The position numbers and the translations under genes were made by a program. Shown here one piece after another: positions 486 through 43,157 of a stretch of DNA of 43,157 nucleotides. The notes beneath the pieces were generated by a model, which searched no databases, was not told where the DNA came from, and saw nothing but the letters and a program-made list of their open reading frames with translations. Position 1 is the stretch's first letter; each line of letters opens with the position of its first letter. The stretch lies in sequence record MK373793.1, one strand, 5' to 3'. This stretch comes from Escherichia phage vB_EcoS_MM01.

Positions 486-514
486 TTGACTACGTGTAAA
501 TGCAGATGTATTAT
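486..514 (+). promoter_or_regulatory. sigma70-like promoter (TTGACT - 17 nt - TATTAT)
   Basis: near-consensus -35 and -10 hexamers with 17-nt spacer immediately upstream of first early ORF. Confidence 0.5.
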
Positions 515-544: not shown

Positions 545-1048
545 GTGAACGAAACTAAGACGCTGGGCGAAGTGATTCGCGAGATGGTAAAGATGGCCCT
601 GAAGTCTGAAGACAAGACATTCAGAGCTCCATTAGAGCACATAACTGAACTTGTGCTGGGGAAGGATTGTCGAGATGAGTTTGGGACGCTGCCAAGGCTT
701 GAGCAACTAAAAAGCTCTTACGTATATAACACTACGGCACGAATGGAAGAGCTGCGCGAAGCTGGGCTGAAAGCAACTCACAGCATTGAGTCTATAGATT
801 ATATGAATGACTTCGGGACTGGCTATATAAAAGGAGAGCCGGAGCTAGTAATTACACTTAAGCCAGGCACCACAAACATAGGCACTCGCAAAAAGGCAGT
901 CGAGCAAACAAAGATCGTAGCTATCGAAGAGTTCAAATCTAAGCTGCTTAAGTTCTCACCTAGCACAATTGAACTTGAAGGTGAGATGTTAGAAGGTGCA
1001 CTGTATGCAATAAATGCTTATCGCGAAATGATTAAGGAGATGAACTAA
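545..1048 (+). CDS. hypothetical early protein
   Basis: ORF-track frame 500..1048; GTG at 545 is 9 nt after GGAGG, whereas ATG at 500 lies inside the promoter spacer; no recognisable motif. Confidence 0.5.
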   Translation: MNETKTLGEVIREMVKMALKSEDKTFRAPLEHITELVLGKDCRDEFGTLPRLEQLKSSYVYNTTARMEELREAGLKATHSIESIDYMNDFGTGYIKGEPELVITLKPGTTNIGTRKKAVEQTKIVAIEEFKSKLLKFSPSTIELEGEMLEGALYAINAYREMIKEMN

Positions 1049-1332
1049 TGAGTTTCAACTATGAGGAATATTTAAAAGAGGTTCATGACTCAATGACTGA
1101 AGAGCAGAAGGCCAATATCGCCAGAATCAAAAGAACCATTGATGAGAACAACAGAATGCTTGAAGCTGAATATAATAAAGCGAATCCTCGATACAATGGA
1201 AAGACGGTTGATGAGTATATCCTTAGTAATTGCGTTAACAAGCCGTGGCATGAAAAGCACACTCGCGCTGAATGGGAAGAAGCTATGGAGTTGTGGCAGC
1301 TAATGAAGAAGCTAAATAAACTGGTAAAATAG
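1048..1332 (+). CDS. hypothetical protein (94 aa)
   Basis: ORF track; ATGA overlap with upstream gene; stop TAG is part of junction motif A. Confidence 0.5.
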   Translation: MSFNYEEYLKEVHDSMTEEQKANIARIKRTIDENNRMLEAEYNKANPRYNGKTVDEYILSNCVNKPWHEKHTRAEWEEAMELWQLMKKLNKLVK

Positions 1333-1347
1333 CACTTTTTGTTAAAA
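1328..1347 (+). repeat. junction motif A copy (aatagcactttttgttaaaa)
   Basis: contains TAG stop of ORF 1048..1332; hairpin ctccc-agtga-gggag; motif B atcgaaacga at 1379-1388; ATG 1403. Confidence 0.6.
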
Positions 1348-1402
1348 CTCCAGTGAGGGAGTTTGGCATAATAGCTTTATCGAAACGAGAGAGGGATTCA
1401 AG

Positions 1403-1483
1403 ATGTACTATGACGTTATCGCTGTTTGCTTGGTTGCCATTGTTGCTATCGTTGCCATTGTTAAGATTACGGAGAAGAAGTAA
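1403..1483 (+). CDS. small hydrophobic peptide (26 aa, MYYDVIAVCLVAIVAIVAIVKITEKK)
   Basis: short ORF read manually downstream of motif A/B unit; single predicted TM stretch. Confidence 0.3.
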   Translation: MYYDVIAVCLVAIVAIVAIVKITEKK

Positions 1484-1614
1484 TGCATACTCAATTTATG
1501 ATGGATGATGTTTTATATGAAGCAATGCCGTGGCTAATCTGGTCCCTGGGATTTATGATTGTGTATATGATTGCATCATTCGCGGATGACGCTAAAGAGG
1601 AAATTAAAGAATGA
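1483..1614 (+). CDS. small membrane protein (43 aa)
   Basis: read manually; TAATG overlap upstream and ATGA overlap with next gene; hydrophobic core WLIWSLGFMIVYMIA. Confidence 0.3.
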   Translation: MHTQFMMDDVLYEAMPWLIWSLGFMIVYMIASFADDAKEEIKE

Positions 1615-1868
1615 TTACTATCAACCTGTCAGAGAAAGACGCGGCGCTGCTAAAGAGTATCATCATGAAACCAATGTACTCCACACTATCGTTCGAGCAG
1701 ATGCGCGTAGTTAAAGAGGTCGGTGCGCAGATTAATAATCAGCAGTTCGATGTTAGTGACTTCGAGAACTCTCGCCAGTACGAGTCGCTAAGTGTAAACT
1801 CCGCATACCTGCACAATTGGGATAAGGCGACAAAGAATTGGAGATTCGATAAGGAGTTCAATAAATGA
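1611..1868 (+). CDS. hypothetical protein (85 aa)
   Basis: ORF track; translational coupling with neighbours. Confidence 0.5.
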   Translation: MITINLSEKDAALLKSIIMKPMYSTLSFEQMRVVKEVGAQINNQQFDVSDFENSRQYESLSVNSAYLHNWDKATKNWRFDKEFNK

Positions 1869-2290
1869 TTTACATCCACACTTACTACACTGGAAAGTTT
1901 AACAGCGTTAAGCATGTTCGCGTGCATTATAGCTACGAGAGTGCAAAGGCTCAGCATTTGGTTCTAGGTGGTGACATTAAGCAATACGGAGAGATAGCGC
2001 GAATTGGTAAACAATTACCTGATCAATCAGGCATAATTGCTACATTTACAACGAGATTGGGCGGAGAAATGAAAATCAAAATTACAAACGTGAACCACAG
2101 GCCAGAAGAAGGCTTAATGACACTAGAGGAATGTGGATTTAAGGTTGGTGACGTTGTTGACGTTGTTGACGTTGCTGGGGTTTACATGGATGGTCGAGTT
2201 TACATTCTTGTGACTCGTGCAAACGATGGGGTATCTGTTGGCAGCGCGGTTGTTTTGGGTGAGAATGAGTACGAGGTGATTGAAGAATGA
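1865..2290 (+). CDS. hypothetical protein (141 aa)
   Basis: ORF track; contains coding tandem repeat VGDVVDVVDV (gacgttgtt x3). Confidence 0.5.
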   Translation: MIYIHTYYTGKFNSVKHVRVHYSYESAKAQHLVLGGDIKQYGEIARIGKQLPDQSGIIATFTTRLGGEMKIKITNVNHRPEEGLMTLEECGFKVGDVVDVVDVAGVYMDGRVYILVTRANDGVSVGSAVVLGENEYEVIEE

Positions 2291-2466
2291 AATTCAGACA
2301 AAGTGACCCAAAGCTACAGGCCAATCACTTTGATGGCTACGCAACATTCATCATTGCACAGGCTTGCGGAATGCGCGAAGACCCACAGGTTCACACCATT
2401 CACATGACCGAAGAGCAGGCTAGAGAGTTAGCTTACGAAATTCTAGAGCAATTGAATCGAATTTAA
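2287..2466 (+). CDS. hypothetical protein (59 aa)
   Basis: read manually; ATGA overlap with upstream stop. Confidence 0.4.
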   Translation: MKFRQSDPKLQANHFDGYATFIIAQACGMREDPQVHTIHMTEEQARELAYEILEQLNRI

Positions 2467-2515
2467 CGCGTCTAGAACGAATTCTAACGAACGATAATTT
2501 AAGCGGGGTGATTTC

Positions 2516-2677
2516 ATGATTAAGATCATTTATACTGGTGACGATGATGATTTGGCGCTAATTCGGTTTGGCGATGTGCTATTCGCAAAGTTGAATGAGG
2601 ATGGAGATTGCTACATTGTAAAAAACAAGAATGGCGAGGATATTTACCTTTCAAGAGACGAGGTCATGATTTGCTAA
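2516..2677 (+). CDS. hypothetical protein (53 aa)
   Basis: read manually; purine-rich RBS upstream; TAATG overlap with next gene. Confidence 0.35.
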   Translation: MIKIIYTGDDDDLALIRFGDVLFAKLNEDGDCYIVKNKNGEDIYLSRDEVMIC

Positions 2678-2814
2678 TGGATAACTACGAATTACCAAGC
2701 CAGTGGGCTAAGAGAATGATGGATGGCGCTAAGACTGGCGAAGAGGCTATGCAGTACTTTGAACTGATGAATCTATGGAAGGAGCGGGAAGATAAAAATA
2801 GCACGAATAGCTAA
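2677..2814 (+). CDS. hypothetical protein (45 aa; C-terminus NSTNS encoded by motif A)
   Basis: internal ATG of track ORF 2608..2814 (track start is TTG); coupled to upstream stop. Confidence 0.4.
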   Translation: MDNYELPSQWAKRMMDGAKTGEEAMQYFELMNLWKEREDKNSTNS

Positions 2815-2816
2815 AA
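2797..2816 (+). repeat. junction motif A copy (aatagcacgaatagctaaaa)
   Basis: member of 13-copy family AATAGCAC-N4-TTG(C/T)TAAA; motif-B-like tatcaaaacaacgagag follows before ATG 2872. Confidence 0.6.
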
Positions 2817-2871
2817 GCATTCGCCAGGGACGGCATATAATTACCTTATCAAAACAACGAGAGATTGAGAG

Positions 2872-3111
2872 ATGTTCGGATTATCAGAAGCGCACTTCAA
2901 CGCAGTAAAACGCCAGGCGGCAAAGCTAAATGACGAGTACAGCAAGTTATCGCCAAAGCAGCGTAAGGATGACAAGCAAGTTGCAGCATTGATTTCTAAG
3001 ATGTGGGAGCCAGTTTTCACAATTATTAGCCGAGACCGATTTGTGTGGACTAGCGGTTATCTTAAGGGTCGTGTTGGTCATGATGAGAATGGTCAATCGT
3101 TGTACGAATAG
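2872..3111 (+). CDS. hypothetical protein (79 aa)
   Basis: ORF track; preceded by motif A/B unit. Confidence 0.5.
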   Translation: MFGLSEAHFNAVKRQAAKLNDEYSKLSPKQRKDDKQVAALISKMWEPVFTIISRDRFVWTSGYLKGRVGHDENGQSLYE

Positions 3112-3388
3112 ATTGGATTGTTAAAAAAGAGCTTGCATCACTGATTGGAAGTATCTAATATTAATCACGTAGACAGACGAGACCACTAAGTGGTAACGGC
3201 GCACGGAGCGCAACTACTAAGTCCGTAGCTCATTAGGTAGCGTATGCGGCAAATCACTTCCCATTATGAGCTTTATTCTCTTAGGGACTTGTAAGACCTA
3301 GCGCAAATAGTCAATCAAATCGGTCGTAACAAGCGACGCTGGAGCCGTAACCAGCAATCTTCATCTAGCAAGCCTAGCTAAAGATTAT

Positions 3389-3463
3389 GCTCTGTTAGCT
3401 TAATGGAAAAAGCCGCAGCCTTCTAAGCTGTTGATGGTGGTTCGACTCCACCACGGAGCGCCA
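3389..3463 (+). tRNA. tRNA-Arg (anticodon UCU)
   Basis: manual cloverleaf: 7-bp acceptor stem GCTCTGT/ACGGAGC (one G-U), D stem GCTT/AAGC, anticodon stem GCAGC/GCTGT with loop CTTCTAA (U33, UCU, A37), T arm GGTGG-TTCGACT-CCACC, discriminator G, encoded CCA. Confidence 0.85.
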
Positions 3464-3482: not shown

Positions 3483-3665
3483 ATGTGGGACGTTAAGTTA
3501 TCAATCAGATTAATGGGCCGTAGTTGCAAGAATTGCACTCAAGAATACATCGCGTCAGTTGCCGCAATCAGCGCTGAGGATGCGGTAGCGAAAGTAAAAG
3601 AGATGTCGGGCGCTGACCCTGACACTCACAAATTCCTAGTAGCTTACGTTCGTGAGCGAAAGTAA
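3483..3665 (+). CDS. hypothetical protein (60 aa)
   Basis: ORF track; AGGAG-like RBS right after the tRNA. Confidence 0.45.
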   Translation: MWDVKLSIRLMGRSCKNCTQEYIASVAAISAEDAVAKVKEMSGADPDTHKFLVAYVRERK

Positions 3666-3709: not shown

Positions 3710-3733
3710 AGCCCTCGCTTGAGGGCTTTTTTT
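3710..3733 (+). terminator. rho-independent terminator
   Basis: GC hairpin gccctc-gctt-gagggc followed by T7 run. Confidence 0.6.
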
Positions 3734-3744
3734 CGTCTGCAATA

Positions 3745-3753
3745 TGCTATAAT
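3745..3753 (+). promoter_or_regulatory. extended -10 promoter element (TGcTATAAT)
   Basis: TGnTATAAT 24 nt upstream of terS start; no good -35. Confidence 0.35.
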
Positions 3754-3776: not shown

Positions 3777-4283
3777 ATGAGCAAAGCAGCATTAAAGCTA
3801 GGCGAGGGCAACTTCAAGACTCTGTATAACAAGAAGTACGGCGATATCGCAATGGTGGCAGTTAACCGCAAATATACGCCTGAAGAGGTGTTTGATTTCG
3901 CGGTGAGATACTTTACCTGGGCTGAGGGTGAATCAATTAAAGCAATTGAGACGGCGGCATTCCAGGGTGTGGTTAGTGAAAACCTTATCCATAAGCCTAG
4001 AGTTTTTACCTTAACAGGCCTGGCTTTGTTTATGGGCGTCAAGATAGGTAGCTTTGCTCGTTGGCGTTCTGAGCCAGGTTACTCTGACGTCATGGAGTTT
4101 ATTGACAACGTAATATACGAGCAGAAGTATCAGCTAGGCGTTTCTGGTATCATCAACTCCACGATTGTTGGCAAGGAACTTGGAATTGATAAGCCGCAGG
4201 AGATCACCATTAGCAACAACTCCACTGCCAACGACGTTGATAGCATGAAGGCAGCGCTGGAATCTGTGATTGGTAAGCTGTAA
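3777..4283 (+). CDS. terS: terminase small subunit (putative)
   Basis: 168-aa ORF immediately upstream of terL with strong AGGAGG RBS; assignment by position. Confidence 0.5.
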   Translation: MSKAALKLGEGNFKTLYNKKYGDIAMVAVNRKYTPEEVFDFAVRYFTWAEGESIKAIETAAFQGVVSENLIHKPRVFTLTGLALFMGVKIGSFARWRSEPGYSDVMEFIDNVIYEQKYQLGVSGIINSTIVGKELGIDKPQEITISNNSTANDVDSMKAALESVIGKL

Positions 4284-4392: not shown

Positions 4393-5958
4393 ATGTCTTT
4401 AGTATGGGAAGAAATGACCATTCAGGAGAAGATGGCGGTTAAGGCTATATCAGAACACAGCTTCGAGGGATTCCTTAGGTGCTGGTTCCAGATTACTCAA
4501 GGCGAGCGGTATATCCCGAACTGGCATCACAAGTATTTGTGCAGAATCATTGACGAGATTATCGCTGGAGAGCGCAAGGACACCATTATCAATATAGCAC
4601 CTGGTAGCGGGAAGACAGAGATCGCATCAATACATTTCCCAGCCTACTCAATGGTTAAATTGAAGAAGGTAAGGAACCTTAACATCTCCTTTGCCGACTC
4701 CCTGGTTAAGCGTAACTCTAAGCGAGTTCGAGACCTTATCAAGTCGGCAGAATTTCAGGCGCTATGGCCTTGCAAGTTTGGAACATGCAAAGATGATGAA
4801 CTTCAGGTTCTTGATGAGAGTGGCAAGGTTAGATTTGAGTCAATATCAAAGGCGGCTGGGGGTCAGATTACTGGTGCGCGTGGTGGCTATATAACTGAAA
4901 AATATAGCGGTGCTGTGCTATTAGATGATTTTGACAAACCCGCAGATATGCTTTCACCAGTTTATCGAGCCAATAATCACGTAATGCTGAAAAACACCAT
5001 TCGCTCTCGTCGCGCTAGCTCAGTAAAAGGTAAGGCCACGCCAATCATTTCTATACAGCAGCGCCTGCACGTTAATGACTCAACATGGTTCATGATGGAA
5101 GGAGGGATGGGTATCGACTTTGATTTGATTAAGATACCTGCATTGGTAACTGAGGATTACATCGACACGCTACCTGACTGGATTAAAGAGCAATTTGCAG
5201 AGGATGTACTAAGCAGCGAATACATTGAGCGAGATGGAGTAAAGTACTACAGCTACTTTCCTAAAAAGGAGTCAGTAAGCGACCTGGTTGCGATGTGGGA
5301 TAGTGACTCTTACACTTTCCTTAGTCAATATCAGCAGGAACCTGTAGCGCTAGGTGGCAACCTCATTAACGTGGATTGGTTCCAGCGCATTAGCGACACG
5401 TTCAGACCTCCTGCTAAGTACGATTATCGATTCATAACTTGCGATACAGCTATGACTACAAAAAGTTATAGTGACTTCTCTGTACTTCAGCTGTGGGGAT
5501 ATAAAGATGCTAAGATTTACCTTATAGACCAGCGTCGCGGCAAATGGGAAGCACCAGAGTTGGAGGCAGAACTACTGGACTTCGAGAAGAAATCAAGGGC
5601 AACCAGTCAATCAGATGGCATCCTTCGAAAGATTATCGTCGAGAAGAAAGCATCTGGTATCGGCCTAATTCAATCAGCGAGTCGAGTTATGCGCACACCA
5701 GTAGAGCCTTACACACCGGATAAAGACAAGTTGACAAGGGTAATGAGTGCGCTGCCACAGATTAAGGCTGGTAACGTAGTTCTTCCTGAGTCTGCGACAT
5801 GGTTAAGCGGATTACTTACTGAGATTGCGGCATTTACCGCTGACGATTCTCATAAACATGATGACCAAATTGACTGTCTAACAATGGCGGTAAACCTGGT
5901 ACTTAACATTGTGGACGATCCCAAGTCTCGACTAATGCGCATAGCGGGAATTAAATAG
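4393..5958 (+). CDS. terL: terminase large subunit
   Basis: 521 aa; Walker A PGSGKTE, Walker-B-like VLLDDFD, C-terminal nuclease-like acidic residues. Confidence 0.85.
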   Translation: MSLVWEEMTIQEKMAVKAISEHSFEGFLRCWFQITQGERYIPNWHHKYLCRIIDEIIAGERKDTIINIAPGSGKTEIASIHFPAYSMVKLKKVRNLNISFADSLVKRNSKRVRDLIKSAEFQALWPCKFGTCKDDELQVLDESGKVRFESISKAAGGQITGARGGYITEKYSGAVLLDDFDKPADMLSPVYRANNHVMLKNTIRSRRASSVKGKATPIISIQQRLHVNDSTWFMMEGGMGIDFDLIKIPALVTEDYIDTLPDWIKEQFAEDVLSSEYIERDGVKYYSYFPKKESVSDLVAMWDSDSYTFLSQYQQEPVALGGNLINVDWFQRISDTFRPPAKYDYRFITCDTAMTTKSYSDFSVLQLWGYKDAKIYLIDQRRGKWEAPELEAELLDFEKKSRATSQSDGILRKIIVEKKASGIGLIQSASRVMRTPVEPYTPDKDKLTRVMSALPQIKAGNVVLPESATWLSGLLTEIAAFTADDSHKHDDQIDCLTMAVNLVLNIVDDPKSRLMRIAGIK

Positions 5959-31675: not shown

Positions 31676-32182
31676 TCAAATCGTGCTGTTTTGCTCTGAC
31701 TCTCTCTTTTTCTTATTCTCTTCCTTAATCTTGCGCCATGATCTAGCAGGTGGTTTTTTTGCTAAATCCTCCTTCTTAACAACTCTAAGCATTTCTCGAC
31801 GGTCGCAACGCAATGTTAGTGGCTTACCGTTGCTATCAAATCGCAGATCAGGACGAATGAAGCTAGCTCTATATCCTTCGCCTGTACGCTTGTACTTTCC
31901 GTGCAGCTTCTGCGCGCCTTTCGCTGAGATCATTCCGCGCTTACACCACTCAGAAACTACTGCATGAGTCACATTGGCGGCTTTTGCTAGCTTCGATTTA
32001 CCGCCGTAGAAGTTAAGAACTATCTCAAGCCTTGCGCGTAAACTTGCTCGCACTTCATCCTTCAAAGTGTAGTAGCCATAAGGTCGACTACGTTCTTTCT
32101 TATCTTCGCCTCGCTGGGTTCCGTTATTTCCATTTAATGTACGCTTGTCCACTTCACCAGTTGATTCCGCGATTCTCGTCAT
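31676..32182 (-). CDS. HTH DNA-binding protein (Cro/YdaS-like, putative regulator)
   Basis: GGKSKLAKAANVTHAVVSEWCKRGMIS helix-turn-helix-like segment; basic termini. Confidence 0.45.
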   Translation of the reverse strand: MTRIAESTGEVDKRTLNGNNGTQRGEDKKERSRPYGYYTLKDEVRASLRARLEIVLNFYGGKSKLAKAANVTHAVVSEWCKRGMISAKGAQKLHGKYKRTGEGYRASFIRPDLRFDSNGKPLTLRCDRREMLRVVKKEDLAKKPPARSWRKIKEENKKKRESEQNSTI

Positions 32183-34776: not shown

Positions 34777-34971
34777 ATGGCTACTATCTTTACTGGTAAA
34801 ATCTACGAATCACGCAAGACTGGTTACGAATATGAATTGGTAATCACTGAAGAAGGTTATGTTCTTGATGATGGTGATGGTTACGCATTCGAAGTTAGCC
34901 CTAGCTATAAAGATGATTTAGAAACTGTTAAAAACGCATTTGGCGAGAAATTTGATGAGGTATCAGAATAA
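34777..34971 (+). CDS. hypothetical protein (64 aa)
   Basis: internal ATG of track ORF 34705, placed by motif B and RBS. Confidence 0.45.
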   Translation: MATIFTGKIYESRKTGYEYELVITEEGYVLDDGDGYAFEVSPSYKDDLETVKNAFGEKFDEVSE

Positions 34972-35192
34972 TGGCAATTTTTACTTTTGAAAATCAATGG
35001 GAAGTGTTCAAGTTAATGGTAGTTCAGGAGTTAGATAGGTCTGGCTACAAAGGAGATATGTGGTATTTGGCTGAATGCCTTGATATGAGCTTTGAAGAGG
35101 ATTACCTGAACACGGATGTCGAAACATGGCGTGACCGTGTGGTTGCAGACATCGCAGAAATGAAAAAAGATTGCCCGGAGGATTTCGAATAA
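34971..35192 (+). CDS. hypothetical protein (73 aa)
   Basis: ORF track; coupled. Confidence 0.45.
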   Translation: MAIFTFENQWEVFKLMVVQELDRSGYKGDMWYLAECLDMSFEEDYLNTDVETWRDRVVADIAEMKKDCPEDFE

Positions 35193-35317
35193 TGAAAATT
35201 GTAGACAAAGAGATGTTCGAGATTGCACAGGTTTACGCAAGTGACGCTGTTAAGACTGGCTCAGAGTATTGCTGGATGTGTGCTAGAGAATACTTAAAAA
35301 TGGCTTACGGCCTATGA
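35192..35317 (+). CDS. hypothetical small protein (41 aa)
   Basis: read manually; TAATG overlap upstream, ATGA overlap downstream. Confidence 0.3.
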   Translation: MKIVDKEMFEIAQVYASDAVKTGSEYCWMCAREYLKMAYGL

Positions 35318-35556
35318 TAGTTGAAACCGGACGCGCCGCAGTTTGGGCGCACTGTGGAGAGGCGGGATTGCAAGATGACATCAAGAAAATATCTAAATAC
35401 TTCGATATTCAAGAAATCAGCGTTGTGTACGGCGGTAAATTTTCATATATACAAGATCGTCCAAGGAAATATGTAAGAGTTAAGCCTGGTGTGAGTATTG
35501 ATGTTAACGATTTCCTGAAATCTCAGGGATGCAAATTTAAGATAACCAAGGGTTAA
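35314..35556 (+). CDS. hypothetical protein (80 aa)
   Basis: ORF track. Confidence 0.45.
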   Translation: MIVETGRAAVWAHCGEAGLQDDIKKISKYFDIQEISVVYGGKFSYIQDRPRKYVRVKPGVSIDVNDFLKSQGCKFKITKG

Positions 35557-35558
35557 AT

Positions 35559-35810
35559 ATGTTGGGTTTATATTTTCAGCCAGAGCATTACGATTTAGTG
35601 TATGGGCAAAGTGGGGCGAAGTTTAGAGCGATACCTATTTCTGATTGGTTTCCTCCTGACTATCTTGATGTTAACGCAAAAACTAAAGATGGAAAGTGGG
35701 TTCAGATTTACTACTCGCCAGCTTGCGGCAACCTTTGCATGACTGACTTGGACCAGAAATTAGCAATTAGTGCGGAAATGATTGATTACTGGTTAAAAGA
35801 AGTTGAATGA
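35559..35810 (+). CDS. hypothetical protein (83 aa)
   Basis: ORF track. Confidence 0.45.
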   Translation: MLGLYFQPEHYDLVYGQSGAKFRAIPISDWFPPDYLDVNAKTKDGKWVQIYYSPACGNLCMTDLDQKLAISAEMIDYWLKEVE

Positions 35811-42605: not shown

Positions 42606-42782
42606 TCAAAAAGGTATGCAATGATTGCAGCCTTCACCATTGCAACAGAAATCTTCATCCTCTGACTGGAAATGTCTGGCAAGATTAATGTCAATCTTTC
42701 CCTTAACAACCATCTCAGTATAGTCCTCGTTAAGCCCAATCAGAGCGCATTCATGGCGTATCTCTTCTTTATTTATCTTCAT
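42606..42782 (-). CDS. hypothetical Cys-rich small protein (58 aa)
   Basis: read manually; C-terminal CCNGEGCNHC cluster; overlaps upstream gene by 14 nt. Confidence 0.35.
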   Translation of the reverse strand: MKINKEEIRHECALIGLNEDYTEMVVKGKIDINLARHFQSEDEDFCCNGEGCNHCIPF

Positions 42783-43050
42783 GCTTTTTCATCTCGTTAA
42801 TGAAACATTGAACAACAAGCAGCTTGTCTTCGTTATGAATCGGCGACTCTTTAAGGGCATCAATCACCGCGTTAAGAGGAGCTCCGTCATGGAAGAACTC
42901 CTGACCCAGGCTACAGAACTGTGCGCTTGTAGGGTAAGCAATCTGGTTAACAGTGGTCGTCATCGTGTCAGCGCTTGCCTTTGCGAAGCCAATTCCAGAT
43001 GCCAGAATTGCTGCTGCGTATACTGCTGTGATTAACTTTTTCATATCCAT
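42769..43050 (-). CDS. secreted/periplasmic protein with signal peptide
   Basis: N-terminus MKKLITAVYAAAILASGIGFAKA typical Sec signal; preceded by motif A/B unit. Confidence 0.5.
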   Translation of the reverse strand: MDMKKLITAVYAAAILASGIGFAKASADTMTTTVNQIAYPTSAQFCSLGQEFFHDGAPLNAVIDALKESPIHNEDKLLVVQCFINEMKKHEDK

Positions 43051-43097
43051 CTCCTCGTTGTTGATGTGTTAACTATAGCCACATAGATTCAATATGT

Positions 43098-43117
43098 CTT
43101 TAGCAAAAAGTGCTATT
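43098..43117 (-). repeat. junction motif A copy (aatagcactttttgctaaag on minus strand)
   Basis: motif-B variant catcaacaacgaggag lies between it and ATG 43050. Confidence 0.6.
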
Positions 43118-43157
43118 TCTCAGATTGGCGATAATCACTGGTATCACAAAGGTATCA
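43103..43157 (-). CDS. 3' end of a gene running off the window edge (partial; ...RNSTFC*)
   Basis: only one minus frame is open to the window edge; stop TAA lies inside motif A. Confidence 0.25.

Follow-up and report, generated by a model that had tools for sequence, protein, structure and literature searches.

The small-gene operon of phage MM01

In the siphophage vB_EcoS_MM01 of Escherichia (hereafter MM01), a block of ten small genes (p1 to p10; plus strand, positions 545-3111) lies between a divergent control region and the gene for the small terminase subunit, terS (3777-4283; PF16677), which is located on the same strand and is followed by the gene for the large subunit (4393-5958). The window analyzed, i.e., the whole stretch of 43,157 bases (sequence record MK373793.1), is the complete genome of this phage and encodes terminases, tail genes, a primase, helicases and lysis genes. 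Its end and its start are contiguous in the circular map: AugustePiccard bridges both, with a spacing of 181 nucleotides (nt) in each phage. Judged by its sequence, MM01 is an Rtp-like coliphage of the Drexlerviridae, subfamily Braunvirinae, and its structural half is 82-84% identical at the nt level to that of the Rtp-like coliphages AugustePiccard, JeanPiccard, Rtp and EC3a.

The block opens with p1 (545-1048; 167 amino acids (aa), GTG start), a member of DUF7174 and phrog_4841, and p2 (1048-1332; 94 aa), a mosaic gene for which no family was found. These are followed by two membrane peptides, the single-span p3 (1403-1483; 26 aa) and p4 (1483-1614; 43 aa), the latter with an acidic tail. 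Next come p5 (1611-1868; 85 aa, DUF7180 and phrog_16063, rtp7-like), p6 (1865-2290; 141 aa), which is a fusion of two modules, and p7 (2287-2466; 59 aa, phrog_7411, rtp11-like). The last three genes are p8 (2516-2677; 53 aa, phrog_38524), which is acidic (isoelectric point 4.2), p9 (2677-2814; 45 aa, phrog_1312, rtp12-like) and p10 (2872-3111; 79 aa, phrog_303, rtp15-like), which is basic. A Shine-Dalgarno match of at least 4 nt is located 4-12 nt upstream of the start in nine of these ten open reading frames (ORFs), six of the nine junctions overlap by 1 or 4 nt, and 93% of the region is coding. The ten tightly coupled ORFs described in a first-pass annotation of this DNA were thus recovered, except that the smallest product has 26 aa and not 24. 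Raw ratios of non-synonymous to synonymous change (pN/pS) range from 0.01 to 0.47 for the nine ORFs that have a homologue among five related loci, a set that excludes p8. Because substitutions are mainly synonymous wherever a relative exists, the ten ORFs are considered genuine genes. That the smallest of them (p3, p4 and p9) are chance open frames, as their length of just 26-45 aa and the lack of a family match for p3 and p4 might suggest, is highly improbable: each has a Shine-Dalgarno site, aa identities are 54-100% and synonymous changes prevail, p3 (100% aa identity) differing from its ACG-M12 counterpart by four synonymous and no non-synonymous changes and p4 and p9 having pN/pS values of 0.14-0.31. 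The maximum Kyte-Doolittle 19-residue window is 2.98 in p3 and 1.67 in p4, and by this measure each peptide is predicted to be hydrophobic enough for one membrane span, in agreement with the two tiny membrane peptides that the annotation had proposed.

Scans of the ten proteins against Pfam, PHROGs, PADLOC and NCBIfam returned only DUF or unknown-function families. p1 matches DUF7174 (PF23796) with 160.4 bits and an expectation value (E) of 3.4e-47 over residues 1-166, and p5 matches DUF7180 (PF23805) with 89.2 bits and E 2.7e-25, the gathering cut-off being 27 bits in both cases, while seven proteins (p1 and p5 to p10) fall into PHROG families without known function. The sole PADLOC-DB match is at chance level (E 0.028), sequence searches against solved structures (profiles for p1 and p10, single sequences for p2, p5, p6 and p7) gave nothing below E 0.3, and a literature search yielded no publication on DUF7174 or DUF7180. 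Homologues in other phages exist for all ten proteins, in 827 phage records for p10, 498 for the p6 modules, 20 for p8 and four for p2, which is the rarest. Full-length homologues of p2 occur in the ACG-M12 lineage only, and over its last 30 aa it is nearly identical to ACG-M12 gp77. The initial description of these genes as orphans without recognizable motifs therefore does not hold. Remote homology and structure prediction, which the annotation had put forward as a check, led by sequence only to DUF or unknown-function families and by modeling to a winged helix in p1.

Comparison of the MM01 window with five relatives (six phages in total) identifies the block, at the level of sequence and gene order, as MM01's copy of a rightward small-gene operon present in all six Rtp-like coliphages. 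The location is that of Rtp, between control region and terS. The first gene after a conserved promoter is rtp1-like (DUF7174), and rtp7-, rtp9-, rtp11-, rtp12- and rtp15-like genes, a transfer RNA (tRNA) for arginine and an rtp17-like gene follow in this order. The counterparts of the block, rtp1-rtp17 in Rtp and gp78-gp66 in ACG-M12, are annotated there as hypothetical proteins. MM01 shares with the Rtp region (rtp1-rtp18) the positions of control region, small genes, tRNA-Arg, rtp17-like gene and terS, as well as the same DUF7174 first gene, the same backbone order and homologues of p1, p5, the p6 N-terminal module (N-module), p7, p9, p10 and the downstream gene p11. At the nt level, only 42% of the positions of the block align to the best relative, with 86% identity. 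As such, the finding is an ordinary one: all related genomes that were inspected have annotated small-gene blocks without known function, and most genes of the MM01 block were already catalogued in families of this kind. The genome papers of T1 and Rtp reportedly already mention many small genes at the genome termini.

Conserved backbone and variable slots

Clustering of the block proteins of the six phages separates a conserved backbone from variable slots. Eight families are shared by the six phages, with unchanged order: p1, a second gene that resembles p2, p5, the p6 N-module, p7, p9, p10 and p11. Inserted between them are variable cassettes, namely p3 (two of six phages), p4 (three of six), the C-terminal module (C-module) of p6 (two of six) and p8 (MM01 only). 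The main variable slot is situated between the second gene and p5, where MM01 carries p3 and p4. In Rtp this slot contains a polynucleotide kinase and rtp6, a peptide of 30 aa that is 79% identical to Stp of phage T4. The Stp peptide inhibits restriction by EcoprrI and sets off the anticodon nuclease PrrC. MM01 has neither the Stp homologue nor the kinase, and its hydrophobic membrane peptides p3 and p4 are unlike Stp. The same slot of AugustePiccard holds a P-loop nucleoside triphosphatase (NTPase), and deoxynucleoside monophosphate or polynucleotide kinases are present within the block of other Drexlerviridae. In addition to p8, which distinguishes it from the five relatives, MM01 carries p3/p4 and the fused p6.

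Selection differs along the block. p7, p10 and p11 are tightly constrained (pN/pS 0.01-0.21), p7 being 88-95% identical in aa to its relatives with a pN/pS of 0.06-0.14, and p1, p2 and the p6 C-module evolve fast, with 35-50% aa identity and pN/pS values of 0.35-0.47.

Several genes of the block have been rearranged. Residues 1-44 of p6 match the mini-protein rtp9 (phrog_3955) and residues 69-141 match phrog_5684, elsewhere a stand-alone protein of 69-84 aa; in ACG-M12 each module has its own gene (gp72 and gp71), and the two genes are read in different frames. The N-module of 44 aa also exists on its own, forms the C-terminal end of 122-aa proteins and the N-terminal end of a 112-aa protein, and is encoded by myophages of ~130 kb. 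The second gene has undergone fusion, fission (AugustePiccard versus EC3a) and intragenic mosaicism. Full-length homologues of p8 with 45-47% identity occur in T7-like Berlinvirus phages (P694_22; homologue at locus position 2498-2671), i.e., in a different phage family and genomic context, at the gene-1.8 position between a nucleotide kinase and the gp2 RNA polymerase inhibitor. That MM01 and T7-like phages both have p8 implies that genes have been exchanged horizontally between phage families. Phage hotspots in which variable counter-defence genes lie between conserved ones have been described as accessory regions, in a paper that makes no mention of T1-like or Rtp phages (Silas et al., bioRxiv 10.1101/2023.04.06.535777). 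The MM01 block resembles them in having variable cassettes between conserved flanking genes, in the fusion and fission of p6 and of the second gene, and in sharing modules (p8 and the p6 N-module) with unrelated phages.

Control region and promoters

The operon is preceded by a sigma-70-type promoter, TTGACT-17-TATTAT (486-514, plus strand), with 10 of 12 consensus matches. Its two hexamers are preserved in each of the six relatives aligned, which upholds the promoter that had been proposed upstream of the block. Overall, the scan shows no enrichment of promoter-like sites (12 versus 10.9 expected), and support for this promoter thus comes from conservation and not from statistics. The inferred transcription start lies near 521. 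An ATG at 500 was rejected as the start of p1 because it falls inside the conserved promoter, and the GTG at 545, where the block had been taken to begin, is favored because it aligns with the ATG starts in EC3a and AugustePiccard. Another promoter-like site upstream (440-467) was discarded, as it is not conserved in relatives.

The divergent control region extends over ~651 nt (43051-43157 plus 1-544), the first leftward gene starting at 43050. Its left part (43051-43157) continues at position 1 of the circular map, and its right part (1-485) carries TTACG[CT] motifs at 103, 144, 203, 213, 224, 295 and 451. These seven sites in 1-560 compare with a genome mean of 0.75 (standard deviation 0.86) per 560 nt and are the genome maximum, and three of them (203, 213 and 224) are phased at 10-11 bp. 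The region also contains an (ATT)n run at about 258-285, which together with the ACG columns is invariant in the alignment of relatives, and a tandem GGCATACAC x2 at 392-409. In its layout it resembles an iteron-plus-AT-rich region or an operator array. Enrichment of the exact TTACG[CT] motif is found as well in ACG-M12, AugustePiccard and EC3a. A palindromic operator, TTAC-N2-GTAA, was also tried, but with three sites in 1-560 against 0.34 expected and none in Rtp or IME542 it is a hint only.

p1, a predicted winged-helix protein

The AlphaFold2 model of p1, with a predicted local distance difference test score (pLDDT) of 78, consists of a domain of a1-b1-a2-a3-b2-b3 order (residues 1-107) and two long helices (elements of the domain: H7-20, E25-29, H30-38, H57-65, (H68-72), E75-83 and E99-107). 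The domain has the topology of a winged helix, and its best structural matches are RepE, Pi, CtsR and OmpR/PhoB-type output domains. RepE and Pi are iteron-binding initiators, and repeated short motifs are found in the control region next to p1. The invariant residues L55, S58, Y59, N62, T63 and R66 are located in or beside helix a3, the predicted recognition helix. The model thus depicts p1 as, probably, a DNA-binding regulator composed of a winged helix and a helical hairpin, and the combination of the modeled fold with invariant residues at the recognition helix points to a dimeric one, with the TTACG[CT] array of the control region as its possible target.

A p1-like first gene is kept in the compared relatives and in several other Drexlerviridae. 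An exhaustive profile search of 1.8 billion representatives gave 50 clusters only and no informative relatives; apart from two short fragments and one long repeat protein, these clusters are of similar size. Foldseek against a viral structure library matched p1 to uncharacterised Drexlerviridae proteins only. Regulation in the Drexlerviridae is, to our knowledge, poorly understood, and the model gives p1 a role that can be tested, namely that of a DNA-binding regulator of the winged-helix type. Another protein that might bind the repeats of the control region, as suggested by its sequence, is encoded in the replication region (31679-32182, minus strand): a 168-aa protein with a Cro/helix-turn-helix-like segment that belongs to phrog_2856, labeled 'transcriptional regulator'.

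Timing and function of the operon

The reading favored here, which we hold to be fairly probable, is that of a host-transcribed operon in which a conserved backbone of probably regulatory or phage-intrinsic genes is combined with variable slots for host-directed accessory genes. In this model, the sigma-70 RNA polymerase of the host would copy the whole block into a single polycistronic mRNA shortly after the DNA has entered the cell, and p1, through its winged helix and a dimerizing helical hairpin, would bind DNA in its own control region and exert regulation. The slot genes would likely be host-directed factors (anti-defence or takeover), since the slots of relatives hold a Stp homologue, a polynucleotide kinase and P-loop or nucleotide kinases. 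Constrained backbone proteins such as p7 and p10 would more probably have conserved phage-intrinsic roles than take part in an arms race, because the backbone order is kept, p7 and p10 are under purifying selection and p10 is present in so many phage records. Three features make early timing of the block plausible: the control region is divergent, the promoter is of host type, and the slots or their vicinity contain homologues of early or middle genes from T4 and T7. No RNA polymerase gene is known to us from T1-like phages, and none came to light in the MM01 window, in which no systematic search for one was made; a literature search found no transcriptome of a T1-like phage.

Four observations weigh against this reading. 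The exact TTACG[CT] motif is not enriched in Rtp or IME542 and has no direct tie to p1. Searches of Pfam and NCBIfam and a PDB profile search gave no winged-helix or helix-turn-helix family match for p1. The promoter type does not discriminate, as sigma-70-type sites also precede the downstream tRNA unit (3132-3160) and terS. Finally, no protein of the window matches a known anti-defence protein, although no dedicated anti-defence profile scan was made.

This last negative also counts against the alternative in which all ten genes are early host-takeover or anti-defence genes. The position of the block behind a conserved host-type promoter and a divergent control region, the Stp homologue and polynucleotide kinase in the block of relatives and the fast evolution of p1, p2 and the p6 C-module would all suit such a role, but seven of the ten genes belong to a backbone whose order is kept in six phages, p7 and p10 are under strong purifying selection and p1 looks like a DNA-binding regulator, so that we regard this alternative as unlikely. 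Two known types of anti-defence protein were sought in the block: Rtp6 clusters with no MM01 protein, and no block protein combines the strongly acidic surface with the size of an Ocr- or ArdA-type mimic, net charges ranging from -6 to +3 with p8 (53 aa) and p4 (43 aa) as the most acidic and p1 at -4. For the host-takeover or anti-defence functions that the first-pass annotation had suggested for the whole block, the contents of the slots in relatives give indirect support, and they do so for the slot products p3, p4, p6 C-module and p8 only. An anti-defence screen is in this way narrowed from ten candidates to four. A bolder combination of ideas, in which p1 would be an unrecognized master regulator or origin binder across the Drexlerviridae that, as a dimer, sets the leftward/rightward switch via the phased TTACG repeats beside the (ATT)n run and, at the same time, the slot products would be new anti-defence or takeover factors that replace the Stp/polynucleotide-kinase pair of Rtp, is put forward as a doubtful one.

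The distal genes, the structured RNA and the tRNA-Arg

Downstream of p10 and outside the block, a second promoter, TTGCAT-17-TAATAT (3132-3160, plus strand), is near-invariant in relatives. It is followed by a structured RNA leader of ~220 nt (3166-3388, plus strand) that runs directly into the tRNA-Arg gene (3389-3463, plus strand; anticodon UCU), as predicted by ARAGORN, and then by p11 (3483-3665, plus strand; 60 aa, phrog_2919, rtp17-like), which is 93-98% identical in aa in relatives. p11 is predicted to be on the same transcript as the tRNA-Arg, and the label 'DUF3667 domain-containing' that it bears in some records was not reproduced by Pfam. An intrinsic terminator-like hairpin with a T run (3710-3727, plus strand) is the first site of this kind on the plus strand past the operon promoter. 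It is located just before terS and is followed by an extended -10 promoter-like site, TGcTATAAT (3745-3753), by which the packaging genes appear also to use a host-type promoter.

The segment 3112-3388 seems to be non-coding and is more conserved among the Braunvirinae than the flanking genes. Scored on an alignment of 14 Braunvirinae sequences, the leader contains nine helices with 37 pairs, 99.4% of the cells being paired. Compensatory double changes occur in 11 of the 37 pairs (48 cells), whereas slid controls give 0-2 such pairs, and none of 500 column shuffles reached the covariation score. As the folding energy of the leader is not unusual (z -0.27), it is only through covariation that a structured RNA is indicated. 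No Rfam family was found for the leader even at E 10, and the idea of a degenerate tRNA or a known RNA family was abandoned after ARAGORN and Rfam gave nothing. The element is present in 88 phage records by blastn and is unannotated in most records among the matches listed. With a covariance model built from its 5' domain, a single copy (3166-3253) was located in the window and none in four loci of other Drexlerviridae lineages (from Klebsiella, Tempevirinae and Erwinia phages), and a 16-mer scan of IMG/VR returned 18 loci, of which six are true Braunvirinae homologues and the rest chance matches. The 3166-3388 segment is therefore presented as a candidate for a new structured RNA, putatively co-transcribed with the tRNA-Arg and p11 and, being absent from Rfam, a more novel object than the genes of the block.

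The tRNA-Arg was found with ARAGORN in all 14 relatives examined, 205-342 nt after the aligned start, which is set ~12 nt upstream of the -35 hexamer. Its anticodon is TCT, or CCT in three relatives. Among the phages with this gene are Rtp (about 4893-4969) and DTL (about 614-691), neither record of which annotates a tRNA-Arg, and in a published comparison the tRNA is given as absent from both (PMC8421802). AGA is the most used arginine codon in MM01 (28-33% of arginine codons).

The model of p10, a basic protein, has a three-helix bundle fold and a disordered but conserved tail (GRVGHDENG.SLYE), and structural comparison gave non-specific matches only. The gene is syntenic in the four further Drexlerviridae loci that were inspected, where it lies a few genes upstream of terS. 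Homologues of p10 in phages TR2 and IMM-001 (locus positions 199-435 and 37-300) are annotated 'transcriptional repressor', a label for which no family or fold match was found. The proximity to terS raises the question of whether p9, p10, the unit of RNA and tRNA and p11 form a packaging or late module that provides terminase or pac accessory factors or late regulators. The order p9-like gene, p10, (tRNA), p11-like gene, terS is indeed kept in distant Drexlerviridae, p10 and p11 are the most constrained proteins, the 3132-3388 segment is conserved above its surrounding genes, and the repressor label of p10 homologues in some records would suit a late regulator. Against this, p9 to p11 do not resemble packaging proteins, p11 and terS are kept apart by a terminator, terS has a promoter-like site of its own, and the compensatory changes in 3166-3388 fit an RNA structure better than a duplex DNA site. 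A packaging or late module is thus quite improbable, and the favored assignment of p9 and p10 is to the backbone of the operon.

The leftward operon and the second block

On the other side of the control region, the first gene of the leftward operon (42772-43050, minus strand) encodes a 93-aa protein of phrog_19819, a family without known function. The N-terminus of this product resembles a signal peptide (MKKLITAVYAAAILASGIGFAKA...) and has no lipobox cysteine. A second block of small genes, at 34777-35810, comprises five ORFs of 64, 73, 42, 80 and 83 aa, flanked by the genes for a VRR-NUC nuclease and for a repair exonuclease. This block had likewise been termed orphan, a designation at odds with the matches of all five ORFs to PHROG families without known function. 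Its 42-aa ORF (35189-35314) also shows a weak match (E 9e-4) to the septation inhibitor Kil.

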